A stretch of DNA of 58,132 nt from Candidatus Saccharimonadota bacterium (GCA_029260855.1 JAJDCK010000002.1:1-58132); one strand, 5' to 3'. Positions 25,232-57,641 are shown, counted from the stretch's first letter. The notes: a model not told the origin generated them from the sequence alone. Made by a program: numbers and translations.

Positions 25232-26398
25232 CTAATAGGTTGAGTAGTTGCAGTGTGAATAACCCGAGCTAGGTGGAATCATATGAGCGTAAACACTAAA
25301 CGTACCGTCATTGTGCTGGATAACGACTGCGTAACCATATGCATTGGTACGATTAAAAAATGATGAGTCAGCCGAACATCCTCGTGAAATTATTTGGCCG
25401 TCAGCGACCGCTTTGACAGGCAGGCCTGCACCGCCGAAATCTATGCCAGGATGACGATCTGAGAGATATACCGGGTTATAGACGTTATACTGTTGCGTAA
25501 TCCTTACAGGGGTAACAGGATATATCCACCCGCCACCTTCAAGCTTAGAGTTAGGGTTAATCAACCCGCCGCCAGAGTTCCTTGCCTCTAAATGCAGGTG
25601 CGCGCCATCCGAGAAGCCCGTGTTACCCACGGTGCCTATTACATCGCCTGAGCTGACTGGGCCAAGGCTAACAAACACGCCACCCGCAAGACGTCTAGCA
25701 AGGGCGTTTTGGGCTGCTATTAATTCATTAATCTTCTTGTTGTTCTCTTTTATTTGGGAGTTGAAGGCCGCCTGTTCAGCTTGATTTAAATTAAGTAGTT
25801 TGTTCTGCTCTGCCCTTTGAGCGCCTATCTCTTGTTCAAGTTCTTTGTCTTCTTTGATAAGCTGTTCAATTTGTTCTCGCTGCTGCCTAAGCTGTAGTCT
25901 TAGAGCTGTGATCTTATCTACCTGGTCCTTTATCTTGTTCCTCACGACTTCGCGGTACTGCTGCTTGTCCACAAACTGACTTAGGTCCTTACTTGTTGCC
26001 AGCATTTCAATCATGCTTATTTGACCTTCTGTATACATGGCGCGTATGCTCTGCCCGAGAACATCTTTTTGTCTGACCAGTTCAATTTCAGCAAGTCTGA
26101 TCTCTTCTCTCAGCGCATTACTCTTGTTCTCGTTCTCGCGAATCTGAGCCTGTAATTGATTGATTCTGTCCTGAAGCTTATTTATGGCAGACTGTAGATC
26201 GCTCGCCCTTATGCGCAAAGCATCTACCAGAGCGTGGGAGTGAGCGTTTTCGTCCTTTAGTTGGTTTATCTGGTTCTGGTGAGTTTGGGCGCGCGCCAAC
26301 GGCATGACTAGCGCAGCAGCAAATCCAGCCACAACAAGCAAAACTATAAACTTTCTGGTTTGGCTTAAGATAGTGTTTTTATTTTTTTGTTTTAGCAT
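25232..26398 (-). CDS. Coiled-coil murein hydrolase (EnvC/PcsB-like) with circularly permuted M23 domain
   Basis: Signal peptide, long coiled coil, ISMIEML..SKDL, then GNTGFSDGAHLHLE before HPGID and YAHM. ATG 26398 is preferred because TTGATT-17-TACTAT overlaps the 26422 start. Confidence 0.85.
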   Translation of the reverse strand: MLKQKNKNTILSQTRKFIVLLVVAGFAAALVMPLARAQTHQNQINQLKDENAHSHALVDALRIRASDLQSAINKLQDRINQLQAQIRENENKSNALREEIRLAEIELVRQKDVLGQSIRAMYTEGQISMIEMLATSKDLSQFVDKQQYREVVRNKIKDQVDKITALRLQLRQQREQIEQLIKEDKELEQEIGAQRAEQNKLLNLNQAEQAAFNSQIKENNKKINELIAAQNALARRLAGGVFVSLGPVSSGDVIGTVGNTGFSDGAHLHLEARNSGGGLINPNSKLEGGGWIYPVTPVRITQQYNVYNPVYLSDRHPGIDFGGAGLPVKAVADGQIISRGCSADSSFFNRTNAYGYAVVIQHNDGTFSVYAHMIPPSSGYSHCNYSTY

Positions 26399-26517
26399 TA
26401 GCTTCTTAATAGTACCATGCATTGACTAGTAAATCAACCCCCCAGCAGTTATAAAATAGAGTTCAATCCTGCGCTCGTCCCTGCAAATGATTTGCGGTTG
26501 AGCGAATTGCACACTGT

Positions 26518-51155: not shown

Positions 51156-54100
51156 CTATGTGCTCATTCCAGCCCAAAAAGCAGCATTGGCAGACGTTAT
51201 AGAGTTCGTGAGATTCACCGAGCTTATGGTTGTTTGACCGCCCGTAGTAACAGTAGCAAACTTTGATACAGCAAGCGCAAGACCAACATTACCTAGTCCT
51301 GGAGTAACTGTGCCCCGAGCAAATAATGGCATTGTCGTGCCGTTACAAAGAAACGCAATATAATAATCAGTCCCTAGTATTACTGCTTGGCCGGTGATAG
51401 TTGCTGTTTTTGTTCCTGTGGTGTTCCATTGAGCAGACATGTCTGTTGGAGATAGTTGGAGTAGCGCGCCGTTAGCATCTAACAAGGCCATGCAACACTG
51501 CCCGCCACCTGTAAGCGTGACACCGCCCGTTTGCACGGCCGAGTATAGCTTGGTAATCGTTTCGGACCTGAGCGCTGTAACGCGATTGAGATATATGATG
51601 CCGGAAACCAGCTGCGAGTTGTTAGAGGCAGATTCCGGATCAAGCGTTACAGCGTTTAGGCCGCGCTTTGAGGGGTGGGCAACAAACACGGTACTAATAA
51701 GACTGTCCGAACCCCCTGCCGCATGTGTAGTGGCATGTGTCGTAACCGATGCTGTTGGATAAGCGGCCGACTGCACCCAAGCAGCACCGTTGTGCACTAA
51801 TTCAATTGTAGAGACCGAAGCAGCGGCTGCCTGGGGCTGCCATGTTATGGATGACAGACTTCCGCCCCATGTAATAGCATGGTTACCCGTGCCGTCCTGC
51901 GTTAGAACTAGCATTAGACGTCCACCAGCAACAGGGTGTGTGGGGGCGTATATATCAACCCCCTGGTCAAGCGTTAGTGTGTGCACATGCCCAGACCGTG
52001 AGTCAGGTGTATAACTACCGCCCAGAGACGATGCGCTTCCGGCAGCATGAAGTTCGTGTCCACCCGTCAGCTGCACTAAATTAGTACCATCGGGTGAGAT
52101 AAAACGGAGGGCAGTAGTAGCATTTGGCGTTGGGTCCAATCGGAAATCGTAGTTGATCCCGTATACTCCATTAAACGCCATGCTGCGTCCGCCAGTACCG
52201 TCTTGTGTCAGGAGCAGGGTCAGCTCAGCACCAGGTGTCAAGTTGTTGGGTGAGCTTATTGTCGTCTGACCCGAGCCGTTACCACTGTCCAGTAAAACCT
52301 GGTGGATTCTAGCAACCCGCAGGTTAGGCTTGTATGTCCCTGCTGTCGGAGTCTGCAGGGAAGATCCTCCAGCATTATAGTAGGCGGAATTGAGTCGCGA
52401 ACTGACTTGGTTCCAAGAGATACCATCATAGATAAAAGAAACAGCACTAACCGCACTGGAATTAAAGTCAACTACCGAACCACTTAGCTTAAAAACCGCA
52501 TCAAATGTCACCAGTACACCACCGGCAACTGGCTGAGTAAAGATCAGTGTCAGCTGTTGACCGCGAAAACAAGGCCCACTAGTGTTACCGATTAGATTAT
52601 CCATTACTGGTGCGGCCACTGTTAGCGGGACGTCGGTTGCAAGACTGACTTCATTGATACCGCCTCGGTTTGGATCTGGAGTAAAAGTACCAGTACTCGT
52701 TGTGACAGTCCCTATGGTTCTGACGCCTAATTGGCTCCCGCAGATCACAGAATTGTTAACCGGGTCATTGTTAATCGTACTGACAGCGTGCGAGGCTGAT
52801 TGTAGGGTAATCGAGTTTCGGATTGGGAAGTTAATGAAATCTAGCGCAGATTGTTGGGTAGCCTGAGCACCCCCAAAACCATTATTGCCAGGCAAACGGT
52901 CAATTGCTAATACCCGAAATGCGCAGTTCGCTGAAGCATCTAGCTGCATACCATAACCGATGATTCCAGACTGGCCATTTGAATCTGGTATTCCAAGACC
53001 GTGGCCATTTGAATCAACAATAAAATCGCCCTGGCAACGCGTGGATCTTACGACAACACCATGCCGCCAGTTGTCTTGGGCTTCACACGAAGCGAATACC
53101 TGCCTGCCCGACACAATAAGCCACCCATCCCCATGGTTGCCGTCAAGTCTTCCACAAAAATATGCTTTGCAGGTCGCCCAACGGACATTACCGCCACCCG
53201 CATAAATGCCCTCTAACCCACAGTCGCCAATATGAATATTGACGTGCGTACCATCGGAGGAGCCGTCACGAAAACCTTGTCCGTCACAGGACTCAACCTT
53301 GAGATCAGTTACATGATCACCAGTGCTGCGTTGCGTGCCGATTGGTGTGTTGCCGTCAATCGCCAGACCATGCCCTGACGCTCCGGAAACTACTACATTA
53401 GATACGACGGGCTCTGAATCAACAACACTAAAAGCGGTCGGGGTTGCGGCCTCGCTGGTTAGATAAATACCGTTTATAACCAGTTGCACGCTATCCCCTG
53501 ATGAGTGGCTTGTTGCTGTTGTCCCCTGCCAGCCACGCCCAGTTGGCACGGCAACAAAACCATTAGTTGCAGAAGCAGCCTGCTGAGGTGTCAATGTATT
53601 GCCAGATTTTGCGGTGATTTGAATTGTTTCTACACCTATACGAATACGGAACGGTGCGGTTGGTAATATCGATCCGTCCGACACTGTGAAGCTGGCCTCG
53701 GTTGCACCGTCTGCAATCCCCGAAGTCAAGGTACAGGCCGCGCCATTTTGCTGCCCTACCTGGCGTTTTCTGTTACCACACACCCAAATATTACGAATAC
53801 TAAGAAGTTCCGCTAGACCGTTGTAGGATTCAATGATTCCCGAACCGGTGGCATTAAAAGTTGCTGACCCACTAGTGCCGTTGTATGAAAAAGTAGTCCC
53901 GCCGATTTTGGAGTTATTAGCTAGCAGTATGACACTCCCCCAGCCATCGCCGACCACTGATGCGTGTGACGGCACGAGGATTTTTTCAGAGGTCACATAG
54001 CTACCAGTACCTCTGTCCGGAAAATAAAGCGTGCCACCAACTACGCCGTCTGCCAACATGGCAGCAACTGCCGCTTGAATATATGGGGCCCAGTCGTTTG

Positions 54101-54938
54101 AAGCCGTTGTTGAAGGGCTCGGTGATGAATTGGCAGGGATTGGCCCATTAGCAACAAACCCGACTGGCGCGAATTTGGTAACGTCGTAAACCGGCCCATT
54201 GAATCTATCTACATAGGCTTTTGTGGCAGCATCCTGTGCAGATAGTGGGTCGGACATGTTCGTTGCTTTTTGGGAGTTAAACGATAGATCGCTCGTTGGA
54301 TCAGCAAGCTCGTCAAGGCGTAAAACATCACTACCTCCATCCTTATGGGTGGTAGCGTGTGTTGTTGGGGTGCGCGAATCCGTCAAGCGTGAATCATCTG
54401 CAACAACAACCCCCGTACCATTAATTGTGACTCCACCTGTAAAATCTTTGGCGCCAGTAACGTTTTCCGTACCGGCAAGGTGGACCACAGCACTGTCATC
54501 AGCTTTGCCGCCCAAACTAGTGTCTAACCCTGCTATTTTAGACTGTGCAATCGCAGCTGAATCATTAACGTCGGCGTTAATAATCACTCCTGCAGCTATC
54601 TGGGGACTGGTAGCTGTACCGCTTAAGTCACCAGCAAGCTGAACCACACCTTTGGTAGCAGCGTCAGCATCTGGGGTTCCCGCGCTAACTGTGTTATCTA
54701 CATACTGTTTCGTGGCAGCCTGCAGAGGAGCAGCAGGATCAGCCGGAAGGTTTACCGTACCCGTGAAGGTCGGACTAGCAAGTGGGGCCTTACCGCCTAA
54801 ATCGTTGGTGAGATTAGTAATCTTAGCTTGCGATAGTGGCTTCTGGGTACCGTCAGCATTATGTTCAACACTTAGATAGTCATTGAGTATGCTACCCCAC
54901 GTACCGGAATCAGAGCCGGGACTGGGCAACCTTGCCAT
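51156..54938 (-). CDS. Large phage tail-fibre/tailspike-like protein with beta-helix domain, no signal peptide
   Basis: N-terminal MARLP.PG.D.G.WG.ILN, fibre repeats AATKQYVD / AATKAYVD / TKGVVQLAG, HATTH..GGSD twice, pectate-lyase-like central region, three L.L..TQ..G repeats. Confidence 0.75.
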   Translation of the reverse strand: MARLPSPGSDSGTWGSILNDYLSVEHNADGTQKPLSQAKITNLTNDLGGKAPLASPTFTGTVNLPADPAAPLQAATKQYVDNTVSAGTPDADAATKGVVQLAGDLSGTATSPQIAAGVIINADVNDSAAIAQSKIAGLDTSLGGKADDSAVVHLAGTENVTGAKDFTGGVTINGTGVVVADDSRLTDSRTPTTHATTHKDGGSDVLRLDELADPTSDLSFNSQKATNMSDPLSAQDAATKAYVDRFNGPVYDVTKFAPVGFVANGPIPANSSPSPSTTASNDWAPYIQAAVAAMLADGVVGGTLYFPDRGTGSYVTSEKILVPSHASVVGDGWGSVILLANNSKIGGTTFSYNGTSGSATFNATGSGIIESYNGLAELLSIRNIWVCGNRKRQVGQQNGAACTLTSGIADGATEASFTVSDGSILPTAPFRIRIGVETIQITAKSGNTLTPQQAASATNGFVAVPTGRGWQGTTATSHSSGDSVQLVINGIYLTSEAATPTAFSVVDSEPVVSNVVVSGASGHGLAIDGNTPIGTQRSTGDHVTDLKVESCDGQGFRDGSSDGTHVNIHIGDCGLEGIYAGGGNVRWATCKAYFCGRLDGNHGDGWLIVSGRQVFASCEAQDNWRHGVVVRSTRCQGDFIVDSNGHGLGIPDSNGQSGIIGYGMQLDASANCAFRVLAIDRLPGNNGFGGAQATQQSALDFINFPIRNSITLQSASHAVSTINNDPVNNSVICGSQLGVRTIGTVTTSTGTFTPDPNRGGINEVSLATDVPLTVAAPVMDNLIGNTSGPCFRGQQLTLIFTQPVAGGVLVTFDAVFKLSGSVVDFNSSAVSAVSFIYDGISWNQVSSRLNSAYYNAGGSSLQTPTAGTYKPNLRVARIHQVLLDSGNGSGQTTISSPNNLTPGAELTLLLTQDGTGGRSMAFNGVYGINYDFRLDPTPNATTALRFISPDGTNLVQLTGGHELHAAGSASSLGGSYTPDSRSGHVHTLTLDQGVDIYAPTHPVAGGRLMLVLTQDGTGNHAITWGGSLSSITWQPQAAAASVSTIELVHNGAAWVQSAAYPTASVTTHATTHAAGGSDSLISTVFVAHPSKRGLNAVTLDPESASNNSQLVSGIIYLNRVTALRSETITKLYSAVQTGGVTLTGGGQCCMALLDANGALLQLSPTDMSAQWNTTGTKTATITGQAVILGTDYYIAFLCNGTTMPLFARGTVTPGLGNVGLALAVSKFATVTTGGQTTISSVNLTNSITSANAAFWAGMST

Positions 54939-54940
54939 AG

Positions 54941-55108
54941 TTACGCGCGCTCGCTGTAGATACGCAGTAACATAATATTTGAGCTGGTTTCGGTTTTTCT
55001 GCTTGCTTTTTGCGCACCGAGCACAAGCTTCGCCCCCACAGCCCTAGTATTGAGTTTTAATGAGCTAGCTAGATTGGTTGAATAGTCAAAATGTGTGCTT
55101 CTACCCAC
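54941..55108 (-). CDS. Candidate 55-aa upstream ORF coupled to the fibre gene
   Basis: Manual translation. GAGGAGG 7 nt before GTG 55108. TAA ends 2 nt before ATG 54938. Confidence 0.4.
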   Translation of the reverse strand: MGRSTHFDYSTNLASSLKLNTRAVGAKLVLGAQKASRKTETSSNIMLLRIYSERA

Positions 55109-55201
55109 AGAGAACCCTCCTCGGGTTATTCACTTCATCTTAACAGCATATGTTGGTGTATAGCAATAATCTTTATGGTTAATGGGGTTTTTTGCTGTGC
55201 A

Positions 55202-55417
55202 TCATGTATTGGTACGGTCTTGGCCGCGACGGCGCCTTGAGCGAACAATCCACACACTAACAATAATGCATAGAACGCCAAAGATAATTCCAGGCAATAT
55301 CATCTGCCCCGTATTGGCCAACCTAGACCCATGTTCTGTCACATCGCCGTAGATACTGCTCCCGTAGGCTTCTCGACCATACTGGGCGATGGTCGTAAAA
55401 ATAACTGCTTGCATCAC
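55202..55417 (-). CDS. Small protein with YG repeats and LAxTG sortase sorting signal
   Basis: QYGREAYGSSIYGD, then LANTG + hydrophobic helix + RSRRRR tail. Confidence 0.8.
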   Translation of the reverse strand: MMQAVIFTTIAQYGREAYGSSIYGDVTEHGSRLANTGQMILPGIIFGVLCIIVSVWIVRSRRRRGQDRTNT

Positions 55418-55420
55418 GCA

Positions 55421-55612
55421 CTACCGTCCATAGGGGCTTACGCCGTAGCCAGAGAGGGCTTTATCGTGATCTTGCGTGCTACTTAAACTGCTAAGATTGT
55501 TAAGTATCGAAGTTACGCCTACCACCGCCAGCAACCCGGCTATCATGTACTTAATAAACTCTTTCCTGGACATGTCTTTCTCTAATAGTTCGTGTATGTT
55601 GAAACGTGCCAT
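55421..55612 (-). CDS. Small protein with Tat-like (RK) signal anchor and C-terminal GYGxxxYG
   Basis: SRKEFIK matches S-R-R-x-F-L-K with R to K, followed by a hydrophobic helix. Ends GYGVSPYGR. Confidence 0.75.
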   Translation of the reverse strand: MARFNIHELLEKDMSRKEFIKYMIAGLLAVVGVTSILNNLSSLSSTQDHDKALSGYGVSPYGR

Positions 55613-55722
55613 AGCTACCTTGTTTTTATAGTGTTGCTGTGTTTGTGTGATCTACTCTTGATTGTAATACCTGTTGTGCTTATGTCAAGCTGCTTGGTAA
55701 GTCCTATGTCATAATCAATGCA

Positions 55723-56298
55723 ATGAGTTTGAGAGTTATTAATAATATTTTGGCGTTTGTTGTCATAATCATTGGGCTATACCTAGTGTTGTCCCCTTTT
55801 ATCCCTGACCTCTTATATAAGATAAGAAAGGTGTCACAAAATACCAAAATTCAAGCGCAAACCAGCAAGCTGAATCAGCCACCCATTGAGTCTGATATTC
55901 CTTCTGATAATCGTTTGCAAATACCTAAGCTCTCTCTTGACGAGAGGATCTATGAAGGCCGCTCTATCAATCTTATAAGTAAGGGCGGTACTTGGTTGCG
56001 GCCCTCAACTGCTAACCCAAGTGAGTCTGGCAACAGCGTTATTGTCGGGCACCGCTTCAACTACAATCGACCGGCGACATTTTATAATCTAGATAAGCTG
56101 GTATTCAAAGACAAAATCGCCGTTTTCTGGGAGAAAAAACGATATATTTACGAAGTATACGAGGTCCTTACTGTCAGCCCGTCTGATGTAAGCATAGAGG
56201 CAAGTACCGATAAACCAGGGCTCACACTTTATACCTGCACGCCGCTTTGGACAGCCCGCCAACGATTAGTCATAAAAACAAGGCTGGTTGAAGAATGA
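55723..56298 (+). CDS. Sortase (class D/E-like)
   Basis: N-terminal TM, RLQIPKL, GNSVIVGHR (His), LTLYTCTP (Cys), RLVI (Arg). Confidence 0.92.
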   Translation: MSLRVINNILAFVVIIIGLYLVLSPFIPDLLYKIRKVSQNTKIQAQTSKLNQPPIESDIPSDNRLQIPKLSLDERIYEGRSINLISKGGTWLRPSTANPSESGNSVIVGHRFNYNRPATFYNLDKLVFKDKIAVFWEKKRYIYEVYEVLTVSPSDVSIEASTDKPGLTLYTCTPLWTARQRLVIKTRLVEE

Positions 56299-56411
56299 AA
56301 GAGTGGCATCGTACAGTTTTCCTGTTGGCACTTCTATGTTTGGCTGTTATTTTCTTGCTTTATGCACGGCAGTCTTACGAGCAGAACTTTTTAGAGTCCT
56401 TTAACTACTAG
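56295..56411 (+). CDS. 38-aa single-TM protein coupled to the sortase
   Basis: Manual translation MKEWHRTVFLLALLCLAVIFLLYARQSYEQNFLESFNY. ATGA overlap with the sortase stop. Confidence 0.5.
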   Translation: MKEWHRTVFLLALLCLAVIFLLYARQSYEQNFLESFNY

Positions 56412-56438
56412 TACTAGGTACTTCTTGCTTAGAACAGC

Positions 56439-57413
56439 TCAGCTAACAATAGTCCTTATGTGCCTCCGAGCAGACGGTCTCCTGGCATCAGTTCTTTGTT
56501 GACTTGTCTGATGTCGCGAGTGACCGGTATGATCGGGAGACAGCACATCCATTACCCGTCTACGTATTGGACTTGAAGGCTTTTGAGCCCGATTTGCTAA
56601 ACCTGGTGGTGGCTTTGCGAACACAACATCAGGCGGACTGGTGGTTTTACTATATTGTTCGCTTGGGCTGTTTTGTTGGGTTTGTGCGTGTTTGCGCGAA
56701 CCGCGGTTAGTAACCCAAACCATAATAATGCCCACTTGGTACAAGAATATGATCGGCAGGGCCATAATCGCTTGGTTAAGCGGATCTGGGGTTGGCGTCA
56801 AGACGGCGGCAAGGATAAAGCTGAACACAATAACATAGCGCTGAAACTTCATCATCCCGCCGGGTTTGAGCGGTTTGATTCGGTTAACGAACAACAGGAT
56901 CAGTGGCGTTTGAAATATCAGTGCGAAGCCTATTATGTATGTCAAAGCAAAATTAAAGTATTCGTCAGCCCCGATCAAAGACTGAATGTTCGACCCACCA
57001 AAACTTGTCAGGAAGTGCAGTGCCGCAGGTAAACTAACGAAGTAGCCGAATAGCACCCCAAGAATCGCCAAGATAAAGGCCCATACGACGTATTTTACGA
57101 TAATACCTGTGTGATGCTTCTTCAAAAGTGGTGCTACAAAACAAAAAATCTGATACAACACAAAAGGCAGCGCTGCCACAAAACCGGTTGCAAGACACAG
57201 CTTAAAGATAAAATTGAACCCGCCAACTGGCGACGTATAATACAGGGTCTCTCCCAGTGGCTGCTGAATAAACCAGAGCAGCTTCTCGTGGAACAAATAA
57301 GCTACAGCCCCGAAAGCACCTATAGAAATCAGGCTAAGAGTCAACCTGAGCTGAAGTTCGCGCACATGCTCTATGAACGGTCTGCGAATAGTGCCGTATT
57401 CCGCACTATTCAT
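56439..57413 (-). CDS. tatC: Twin-arginine translocase subunit TatC (divergent, long C-tail)
   Basis: EHVREL..RL, YQ...FVAP.L, G....YF...P, LTPTPDP.NQ...A.P...LY. Confidence 0.93.
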   Translation of the reverse strand: MNSAEYGTIRRPFIEHVRELQLRLTLSLISIGAFGAVAYLFHEKLLWFIQQPLGETLYYTSPVGGFNFIFKLCLATGFVAALPFVLYQIFCFVAPLLKKHHTGIIVKYVVWAFILAILGVLFGYFVSLPAALHFLTSFGGSNIQSLIGADEYFNFALTYIIGFALIFQTPLILLFVNRIKPLKPGGMMKFQRYVIVFSFILAAVLTPTPDPLNQAIMALPIIFLYQVGIIMVWVTNRGSRKHAQTQQNSPSEQYSKTTSPPDVVFAKPPPGLANRAQKPSSPIRRRVMDVLSPDHTGHSRHQTSQQRTDARRPSARRHIRTIVS

Positions 57414-57434
57414 AATCTACCCCCGAAACGTTAC

Positions 57435-57641
57435 TTACTTCTGTTCAGTGTTTTTGTCGTCATTCTGTGATGCTGTTTTGTCTTTTTTATCCATGTTAGC
57501 CAATCCCCCGTCAAACCCTTTTTTGAGCTCTCCAGCTGACTCGCCCAAACTACGTGCTAGCTTTGGGAGCCTTGTTGCGCCAAACAGTAACAGTAGTATT
57601 ACTAATATAATTATTAGTTCCGGTAGCCCTAAACCAAACAT
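57435..57641 (-). CDS. tatA: Twin-arginine translocase subunit TatA/E
   Basis: GLGLPELIIILVILLLLFGATRLPKLARSLG. Confidence 0.95.
   Translation of the reverse strand: MFGLGLPELIIILVILLLLFGATRLPKLARSLGESAGELKKGFDGGLANMDKKDKTASQNDDKNTEQK

Follow-up and report, generated by a model that had tools for sequence, protein, structure and literature searches.

A conserved Saccharibacteria gene cluster combining TatAC, a sortase, YG-motif mini-proteins and phage-type fibres, and its possible role in surface display

Introduction

Several described bacterial systems resemble parts of the gene cluster analysed here, which occupies positions 51,156 to 57,641 of a 58,132-nucleotide stretch of DNA from Candidatus Saccharimonadota bacterium (GCA_029260855.1, JAJDCK010000002.1:1-58132; this whole stretch is referred to below as the window) and comprises genes for the twin-arginine translocation (Tat) proteins TatA and TatC, a sortase, three mini-proteins (denoted mini1, mini2 and mini3) and a long phage-type fibre. 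In the Tat hitchhikers (HybO/HybC, DmsA/DmsB, FdnG/FdnH and PaoABC), a signal-bearing partner is encoded next to a signal-less one that folds in the cytoplasm (PMC4273604, PMC10924467), an arrangement similar to that proposed below for mini1 and the fibre; hitchhiker partners of the FdnH type have a C-terminal membrane anchor as well. Signal-less partners with such C-tails could not be found bioinformatically in the search reported in PMC10924467. The same work, from the Palmer laboratory in 2024, describes Tat-dependent sortase substrates of Actinobacteria, proteins that are exported by Tat and anchored by a sortase via a sorting signal at the C-terminus (PMC10924467). The mosaic adhesive trimer (MAT) fibres of Bdellovibrio, a bacterium living on bacteria, are chromosomally encoded phage-like chimeras with an invariant N-terminal domain and swappable tips, and in these respects are similar to the fibres with the N-terminal fibN head described below; the surface partner of the MAT N-terminal domain is unknown (PMC10769870). 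In the Elr/WxL pilus of Enterococcus, a small LPxTG protein serves as the wall anchor and a membrane-anchored helper primes the subunits (bioRxiv 10.64898/2026.10.17.759780).

How ultrasmall epibiotic bacteria of the Candidate Phyla Radiation (CPR) recognise and hold their hosts is largely unknown, and it is not well understood why genomes of ~0.8 Mb retain a Tat system. A preliminary description of the window proposed that the cluster exports a folded fibre and displays it on the cell surface, and knew of no earlier account of this gene set as one system; we likewise found no description of a combined Tat, sortase, mini-protein and fibre system in print. Neither CPR bacteria nor sortases are mentioned in a recent Tat review, Tat and these fibres are both absent from the Saccharibacteria papers on transposon sequencing and type IV pili, and a preprint on a CPR pilus goes no further than noting 'a tail fibre-like protein' in the vicinity of the pam operon (PMC13278184). 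Here we report that the cluster is a real gene system, conserved among Saccharibacteria, whose mechanism is plausible but unproven; the interpretation given in the preliminary description is partly supported.

Gene content of the cluster

The cluster consists of the following features, with lengths in amino acids (aa):

51156..54938, minus strand: mosaic fibre, 1260 aa, consisting of the fibN head, a DUF5907 repeat, a beta-helix-like body, three ~90-aa repeats and a tip domain
55202..55417, minus strand: mini2, 71 aa, with YGREAYGSSIYG at residues 13-24, LANTG at residue 33, a hydrophobic helix and RSRRRR at residue 59; no signal peptide
55421..55612, minus strand: mini1, 63 aa, with SRKEFIK at residue 15, a hydrophobic helix and C-terminal GYGVSPYGR (GYGVSPYG at residue 55)
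55421..55423, minus strand: TAG stop codon of mini1, in frame with mini2
55723..56298, plus strand: sortase, 191 aa, with an N-terminal transmembrane helix
56295..56411, plus strand: mini3, 38-aa open reading frame (ORF) with a single transmembrane segment
56439..57413, minus strand: tatC, with a ~85-aa C-terminal tail
57435..57641, minus strand: tatA

Five components, namely the fibre, the two mini-proteins mini1 and mini2, the sortase and tatAC, had been grouped within 6.5 kb in the preliminary description. All five are found in the six-frame list of ORFs and in the sequence, and each ORF is as described there, including the 71-aa one with its YG motif, sorting signal, transmembrane helix and basic tail, and the 63-aa one with SRKEFIK and GYGVSPYG; the observed gene set is confirmed. 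To these we add a sixth conserved component, mini3, the start codon of which overlaps the stop codon of the sortase gene (ATGA). The source genome has a size of 790 kb in 18 contigs, of which the window is contig 2, and contains four sortase-like genes.

Conservation of the cluster in Saccharibacteria

Relatives of the cluster were retrieved via tatC, and all of them carry the label Saccharibacteria or Saccharimonadales. Among 31 tatC loci from species-representative genomes, taken with 10-kb flanks and scanned with purpose-built profiles, mini1 lies near tatC in 24, usually in the order tatA-tatC-mini1 on one strand. The sortase is encoded within 2.2 kb of tatC in 14 of the 31 loci, and mini3 in the same 14; mini2 is found in 15 loci, usually between the sortase and tatA on the opposite strand, and a fibre gene with the fibN head in 14. 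Longer proteins with the YG motif, which we denote YG-long, are encoded in five loci, these without the sortase. A YG-tipped anchor of either kind is present in 20 of the 24 loci that contain mini1 compared to none of the 7 that lack it (Fisher p 1.3e-4, a value that overstates independence because the species are related).

The fibN head allows an independent entry into these loci. A degenerate DNA pattern for fibN matched at least 120 places, and among the 80 of them that were listed, all confirmed by the fibN hidden Markov model (HMM), ~70 belong to Saccharibacteria. Genes for tatA, tatC or mini1 are present in 19 of these 80 listed fibN-centred 8-kb loci, against an expected ~1-2%. Conversely, among 56 distinct mini1 genes, 17 are directly followed by a fibN gene at a gap of -1 to 194 nucleotides (nt), with the gap being -1 to 30 nt in 9 cases, and 6 are directly followed by a mini2 or YG-long gene. 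Overlapping start and stop codons are frequent, and mini1 is often translationally coupled to the fibN gene or mini2.

The window keeps the full gene set with order and orientation rearranged, and the same is seen in many Saccharibacteria species; the presence of the same set in different orders and orientations suggests selection for proximity. The grouping is far beyond chance. Independent distribution of the components, which the preliminary description held to speak against a single system, is not what we find, given that they are syntenic across species-level representatives.

Two variants of the neighbourhood deserve a separate mention. In three tatC loci without mini1 (L032, 7339-7940; L033, 9056-9639; L041, 4410-5270), a second tatA paralogue is followed by a gene for a ~98-aa protein headed by fibN, and the extra TatA of L032 ends with EQGYGQEGYGEDKNG, which resembles the YG motif. 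In one relative (L027/L058), mini1 is followed downstream by a gene of the integrase family and by a complete type IV pilus operon (PilX_N, N_methyl pilins, prepilin peptidase, T2SSF and T2SSE).

Mini1 as a putative Tat signal-anchor

Both tatA and tatC pass the NCBIfam equivalog cut-offs (TIGR01411, 55.4 bits against 53.9; TIGR00945, 153.4 bits against 132.7), in agreement with their initial identification. The pair had also been called divergent, and here a distinction is needed: overall, the two proteins are ordinary members of their families, and it is the signal pocket of TatC that is altered.

A search with mini1 as a single sequence returned mini1 itself alone, and a profile search brings together a family of at least 192 members, all of them unnamed. 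Mini1 and all 17 tested relatives match NF038009 ('TatB_1', twin-arginine translocation system-associated protein) over nearly the full profile with E values of 1e-12 to 1e-19, all below the curated cut-off of 100 bits (47.5 bits and E 1.5e-12 for mini1; E 1.1e-19 for the best relative). The name of this model reflects the same gene context as that of mini1, and the model gives no mechanism. Among 120 members of the mini1 family, the motif can be written as cap(D/N/S/T)-R-x-x-F-[L/I], with the cap position, the first Arg, the Phe and the Leu/Ile being invariant; these residues are in register and are followed by a moderately hydrophobic h-region, which is the layout of a Tat signal. The residue after the first Arg is Lys in 61%, Arg in 21% and Ala in 12% of the members; the two consecutive arginines of the twin-arginine consensus S-R-R-x-F-L-K are absent from mini1 of the window (SRKEFIK). 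The C-terminal YG motif is present in 117 of the 120 members, and the flank after the hydrophobic helix is basic (mean charge +2.6), as in a Sec-avoidance motif.

The one-arginine motif can be compared with the receptor. In the 2026 electron cryomicroscopy structure of Escherichia coli TatBC with a bound signal (PMC13323110), the first motif residue caps a helix, the first Arg contacts E15 and F94 of TatC, the Phe occupies a pocket lined by F94, L9, H12 and L13, and the second Arg is salt-bridged to E103 and packed on Y100. When TatC of the window is aligned to Aquifex TatC, the residues corresponding to H12, E15 and F94 (E. coli numbering) are kept as H16, E19 and F92, and those corresponding to Y100 and E103 are replaced by K98 and H101. 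Across 50 Saccharibacteria TatC proteins, H16 and E19 do not vary, either Phe or Tyr occupies position 92, and Glu is never seen at position 101. As judged from these alignments and the published structure, mini1 keeps exactly those positions whose TatC contacts are kept and is free where the receptor residues are lost, its variable second-arginine position corresponding to the loss of Y100 and E103 throughout the lineage. From this matching pattern we infer that mini1 is a genuine ligand of TatC; no other single argument for such a role is as strong, and the pattern is in line with the Tat-like character ascribed to mini1 from the start. No covariation of the RR and RK forms of mini1 with the residue at the E103 position was detected within the lineage, because the loss of E103 is lineage-wide.

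TatC of the window also has a Pro/Ser/Arg-rich C-terminal tail of ~85 residues (residues ~240-324; window 56439-56700, minus strand), which is partly conserved among relatives (...PRAQKPSSRRxxMDILSP...).

In the window, mini1 and mini2 are in the same frame, separated by the TAG stop and one codon, and one could suspect a single normal sortase substrate interrupted by the TAG, be it a nonsense mutation, an error of sequencing or a site of read-through. In L006, too, the two ORFs share a frame (with TAA), and the protein made by read-through would combine a signal with a sorting motif; on the sorting-signal model TIGR01167 (cut-off 15.9 bits), mini2 alone scores 15.5 bits and the read-through protein 17.7. 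This explanation is nevertheless extremely improbable. A mini1-type match is found in 28 of 60 genomes of the same order, nearly always as the first part alone, that is, as a separate ORF of 55-85 aa ending directly after GYGSSxYG[GR], and the relatives of mini1, at least 192 in number, end right after the YG motif with or without mini2 downstream. Where mini2 does follow mini1, it shares the frame of mini1 in two cases (the window and L006) but not in two others (L007 and L031), and in most species it is located on the opposite strand, beyond tatAC. Read-through of the TAG was accordingly rejected, and the sequence comparison identifies mini1 and mini2 as two genes.

YG-tipped stalks and the adjacent sortase

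Mini2 shows the layout of a sorting signal, with LANTG followed by 21 mostly hydrophobic residues and RSRRRR. The HMM of its family matches at least 26 loci, and in nearly all of them the gene lies next to tatA and the sortase. The short forms (70-121 aa) begin with a sequence such as MNKYYTVNFAQ, continue with the motif AYGxGxYxxxxY and a linker of Gly, Ser and Thr, and end with Lx[N/D]TG, a helix and WRRPxK; the family consensus of the sorting motif is thus Lx[N/D]TG and not LAxTG as first suggested. None of the short forms has a signal peptide or can be extended upstream to include one, and only 12 residues precede the YG motif in mini2 of the window. Signal-less insertion with the N-terminus outside is known for tails of this kind, for example in the Pf3 coat protein. 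Given its short, near-uncharged N-tail and strongly basic C-flank, mini2 may insert in this orientation by itself, without Tat.

The YG-long relatives are larger (200-390 aa, apart from one of 90 aa with LSDTG) and have a Sec signal peptide with an AxA site that is followed at once by STYGSGxYGxCxY; a Ser/Thr-rich linker and a central region lead to a membrane-spanning helix and a basic stretch at the C-terminal end. No Pfam family was found for them. They are encoded beside tatA in the following loci, which lack the sortase:

L025, 10257-11192: YG-long protein
L028, 7713-8624: YG-long protein
L044, 8996-9712: YG-long protein
L038, 8921-9688: YG-long protein
L036, 8823-9983: YG-long protein
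L013, 749-1486: YG-long protein

The strict motif YG3YG3Y has 17 matches in the 475,000 residues of ORFs of at least 100 aa in these loci, all in YG-family proteins and with the motif at the mature N-terminus after AxA. The position of the Sec signal and the AxA site directly before the YG motif indicates that in these relatives the motif forms the tip of an anchored stalk, exposed outside the cell as the mature N-terminus. Mini1 coexists with such Sec-signal forms and is therefore not merely the missing signal of mini2.

The sortase belongs to PF04203 (E 7e-26) and has the intact His, Cys and Arg noted earlier (His110, Cys172 and Arg179/181). Its assignment to class E, in contrast, is ruled out by a score far below the class cut-off (NF033747, 63.7 bits against 160); the protein is below every class cut-off, with class C being the higher-scoring of C and E at 77 bits. 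Mini3 (HMM E 7.7e-18) is present in 18 loci, always directly after the sortase, as a protein of 34-38 aa with MSEKTKFWLLLGLL... in relatives, and may be a partner of the sortase.

Signal-less fibres with a common head

The fibre of the window starts with MARLPSPGSDSGTWG and ends with ...AFWAGMST, and neither a signal peptide nor a C-terminal anchor is present in its 1260 residues, as had been stated. Searches of Pfam, NCBIfam, PHROGs and PDB sequences returned DUF5907 and weak matches only; one or other of its modules is matched by 1087 representative proteins. The following parts can be delineated:

54834..54938, minus strand: fibN head, ~35 aa, MxRLPxPGxDxGxWGxxLNxxLxVxHNxDGxLK in the alignment
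52389..54206, minus strand: central body, residues ~245-850, a module common to P0123-P0125 and other proteins
51159..51683, minus strand: tip domain, residues ~1086-1260, a beta-sandwich of actinophage tail-fibre type

The fibN head is found at the extreme N-terminus, starting at residue 1, of ~96 distinct proteins (loci L030-L142), and what follows it varies from protein to protein, including collagen-like repeats, DUF5907, a pectate-lyase-like beta-helix and others. AlphaFold2 (AF2) models fibN as a short helix, with a predicted local distance difference test score (pLDDT) of 75-93. The central body is probably a beta-helix, as judged by the relative in L058 that matches Pect-lyase_RHGA_epim; a word-based homologue search with this region returned the query alone. 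Between the body and the tip, at residues ~800-1080, there are three tandem ~90-aa repeats, each with the sequence (L/M)xLxxTQxxxGG, and similar repeats are seen in P0126, P0130 and P0140.

The description of this protein as a phage-type fibre is borne out by the tip. Over its last ~175 residues, the protein shares 30-37% identity with minor tail proteins of Streptomyces phages, and the AF2 model of this domain is a confident beta-sandwich (pLDDT 86; predicted template modelling score 0.82). With Foldseek, this model matches collagen-like proteins of phage BRock (E 2e-16, template modelling score 0.77-0.79). Many minor tail proteins from phages of Streptomyces, Gordonia and Mycobacterium are matched as well, as are the central fibre of Douge, the tail tip of Bxb1 and carbohydrate-binding modules. 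No other phage genes are found near the fibre gene among the ORFs of the window (PHROG matches are only weak), and the housekeeping genes rpsB, tsf and frr adjoin it together with tatAC. The term 'phage-type fibre' is thus justified and 'prophage' is not. For the organism recognised by the tip, an actinobacterial host is a reasonable guess.

The fibN head and the YG motif in actinophages

Among 50,697 phage records, fibN is confined to just five related Streptomyces phages (six records), where it heads a collagen-like protein with the same tip that is encoded among tRNA genes and not in the tail module. Two proteins of one of these phages, BRock, contain the strict YG motif, against ~0.008 matches per proteome expected from composition:

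L184, 25002-26945: BRock tail sheath, with GYGEGTYGGGTYGG
L184, 12232-14607: BRock gp126, 791 aa, with STGYGVDIYGTILYG

In the sheath, the YG3YG3YG loop follows an apparent FN3-type insert; in gp126, the gene for which lies beside baseplate genes, the motif is at the N-terminus. The sheath motif is invariant in GiJojo, LuckySocke and pSt2308 at ~78% overall identity, and the sheath region that bears it is confined to the five fibN-bearing phages. A virion has neither Tat nor a sortase; its common ground with the cell is a fibN fibre together with a YG motif on the presumed fibre carrier, which supports the idea that the YG motif is a fibre handle. This pairing in phages amounts to one evolutionary event and shows no contact between the two elements.

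A putative surface-display module and alternative explanations

We tentatively propose that the cluster encodes a lineage-specific Saccharibacteria surface-display module working in five steps, a reading whose chances we put slightly below even. TatA and TatC would recognise mini1, a free-standing signal-anchor with one arginine. The C-terminal YG tail of mini1 would bind the invariant fibN head of signal-less fibres folded in the cytoplasm. Mini1 would thereby serve as a minimal hitchhiker partner that provides the signal in trans, and after export it would hold the fibre at the membrane with its own N-terminus inside and C-terminus outside. The same YG motif at the outer tip of the stalk proteins would provide docks to which fibres pass from mini1; these stalks would be fixed either to the wall, as predicted for mini2 after cleavage at LANTG by the adjacent sortase, perhaps aided by mini3, or, in relatives, to the membrane, as predicted for YG-long. 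Finally, the actinophage-type tip of the fibre would bind the surface of an actinobacterial host.

A more far-reaching version of this proposal would be a split-signal Tat pathway, in which a TatC without the second-arginine pocket reads a one-arginine peptide whose Tyr-Gly tail plugs into the head of hundreds of phage-derived signal-less fibres, with the same plug, borrowed from or shared with actinophage virion proteins, being placed on sortase-anchored and membrane-anchored stalks to form an interchangeable host-recognition array of the epibiont. In this full form we regard the proposal as doubtful.

A number of observations weigh against the proposed module. The standard Tat-signal HMM TIGR01409 matches just 1 of 17 mini1 members (E 0.005), and, to our knowledge, a trimer of the 1260-aa fibre (~390 kDa) would be above the size of known Tat cargoes. 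Most fibN genes (~76% in the 80 listed 8-kb loci) are not next to tat, three tatC loci (L032, L033 and L041) contain fibN without mini1, the relatedness of the species reduces the weight of the co-occurrence counts, and the phage support comes from a single clade. In the AF2 model of a chain consisting of mini1, a 22-codon spacer and fibN (the natural in-frame read-through of L047 with stops as Gly, for which the alignments of the two families were combined unpaired), confidence is high for the helix of mini1 and for the head of the fibN protein, and the YG tail has pLDDT below 50 and no secondary structure. The model thus lends no support to docking; it is a weak test, being a monomer of a probable trimer with no paired covariation or contact output.

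Some of these observations would also fit a different division of labour, in which mini1, mini2 and YG-long form a structure outside the cell and the fibres, which exit otherwise (by lysis, vesicles, a pilus or another system), dock on the YG tips there. Tat would then only insert mini1, the basic C-tail of which cannot cross by Sec/YidC, whereas mini2 would insert by itself with the N-terminus outside, remain tail-anchored and then be fixed by the sortase. The ordinary Sec signals of YG-long, which place the YG tip outside the cell, fit this scheme, as do the short, Gly/Ser/Thr-rich, low-charge N-tail and strongly basic C-flank of mini2, the distance of most fibN genes from tat and the lack of docking in the fused, cytoplasm-like AF2 chain; furthermore, the cluster of L027/L058 adjoins type IV pilus genes, and the tail fibre-like protein of the CPR pilus preprint is encoded near the pam operon (PMC13278184). 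We nevertheless consider it unlikely, given that the fibN proteins are without any signal and no alternative exporter is linked to them, that mini1 is translationally coupled to fibN genes, and that fibN clusters with tatAC even in loci without mini1 or YG anchors (L032, L033, L041, L035 and L136).

Other explanations require less coupling among the components. Mini1 might be an accessory or regulatory subunit of the exporter, a stand-in for TatB or an assembly factor at the signal site, with the sortase, mini2 and the fibre being independent neighbours. The NCBIfam label of the related family points in this direction, tatA-tatC-mini1 on one strand is the commonest arrangement (29 of 56 mini1 genes), and no separate TatB-type gene was noted in these loci, several of which have a second tatA-like ORF. 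The layout of mini1, however, is that of a signal peptide, with a polar n-region containing the motif and a helix, and not the N-terminal plus amphipathic helix of TatA/TatB; moreover, a subunit role leaves unexplained both the YG motif, common to nearly all members and to the anchored proteins, and the strict co-occurrence of mini1 with YG anchors, which makes this option quite unlikely. Even less can be said for mere inheritance of gene order beside a variable island, with the fibre as a relic of a phage or mobile element. The fibre is indeed a mosaic of modules that are found in phage-like proteins, fibN genes are numerous and mostly dispersed, and related species inflate the statistics, but the flanks are housekeeping genes without phage genes nearby, the gene set persists despite rearrangements in many families of the order, start and stop codons frequently overlap, and the small ORFs are all intact with conservation at the motif level. 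We accordingly regard an uncoupled neighbourhood as very unlikely, and the surface-display module, with the reservations given above, as the preferred interpretation.

Flanking genes and other features of the window

The cluster is flanked by rpsB, tsf, frr, uppS and an apparent gene for ribosomal protein L31. Two further features were noted:

55661..55688, minus strand: promoter-like site TTGACA-16-TACAAT, ~50 nt upstream of mini1, a consensus match alone
25232..26422, minus strand: ORF containing TRKFIVLLVV

The count of promoter-like matches in the region is not above that in shuffled sequences. The ORF at 25232-26422 is the sole other one in the window caught by a loose Tat-like pattern; it has the appearance of an ordinary signal-anchor and is probably not a Tat substrate.

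Comparison with known systems

If the proposed module is correct, it would provide the first natural example of a Tat signal carried by a peptide of its own, a Tat code based on one arginine and matched by a change in the receptor, a sortase substrate lacking a signal peptide, and a modular means by which a cell can mount receptor-binding fibres of phage type. Testable determinants of host range in Saccharibacteria would be gained as well; the tip domains resemble those of Streptomyces, Gordonia and Mycobacterium phages.

Compared to the Tat hitchhikers, mini1 as proposed here would be a mere signal-anchor with a 10-residue YG tail and one arginine, serving many cargoes via a 35-aa head, and the complex is putative. 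The Saccharibacteria locus is in this sense a concrete candidate for the signal-less C-tail Tat partner. In the Tat-dependent sortase substrates of Actinobacteria, the twin-arginine and sorting signals are located on one chain, whereas here they are on separate mini-proteins, with mini2 perhaps being Tat-independent. The MAT fibres of Bdellovibrio have Sec signal peptides and an N-terminal domain of ~130 aa, in contrast to the ~35-aa, signal-less and Tat-linked fibN. The Elr pilus differs in that all its parts are Sec-dependent, it works by WxL donor-strand exchange, it is restricted to Bacillota, and there is no sequence relation to the proteins of the window. The fibres of actinophages (Streptomyces phages BRock, Success and FlowerPower, and mycobacteriophages Douge and Bxb1) have the tip fold and 30-37% identity in common with the fibre of the window, and BRock gp186 shows the same fibN-collagen-tip layout as short Saccharibacteria fibres; the phage fibre, however, would attach to a virion, whereas the gene in the window lies among housekeeping genes with no phage module. 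Thus, Tat hitchhiking, Tat-dependent sortase substrates, MAT fibres and the Elr pilus each share one aspect with the Saccharibacteria cluster, and none of them combines these aspects.

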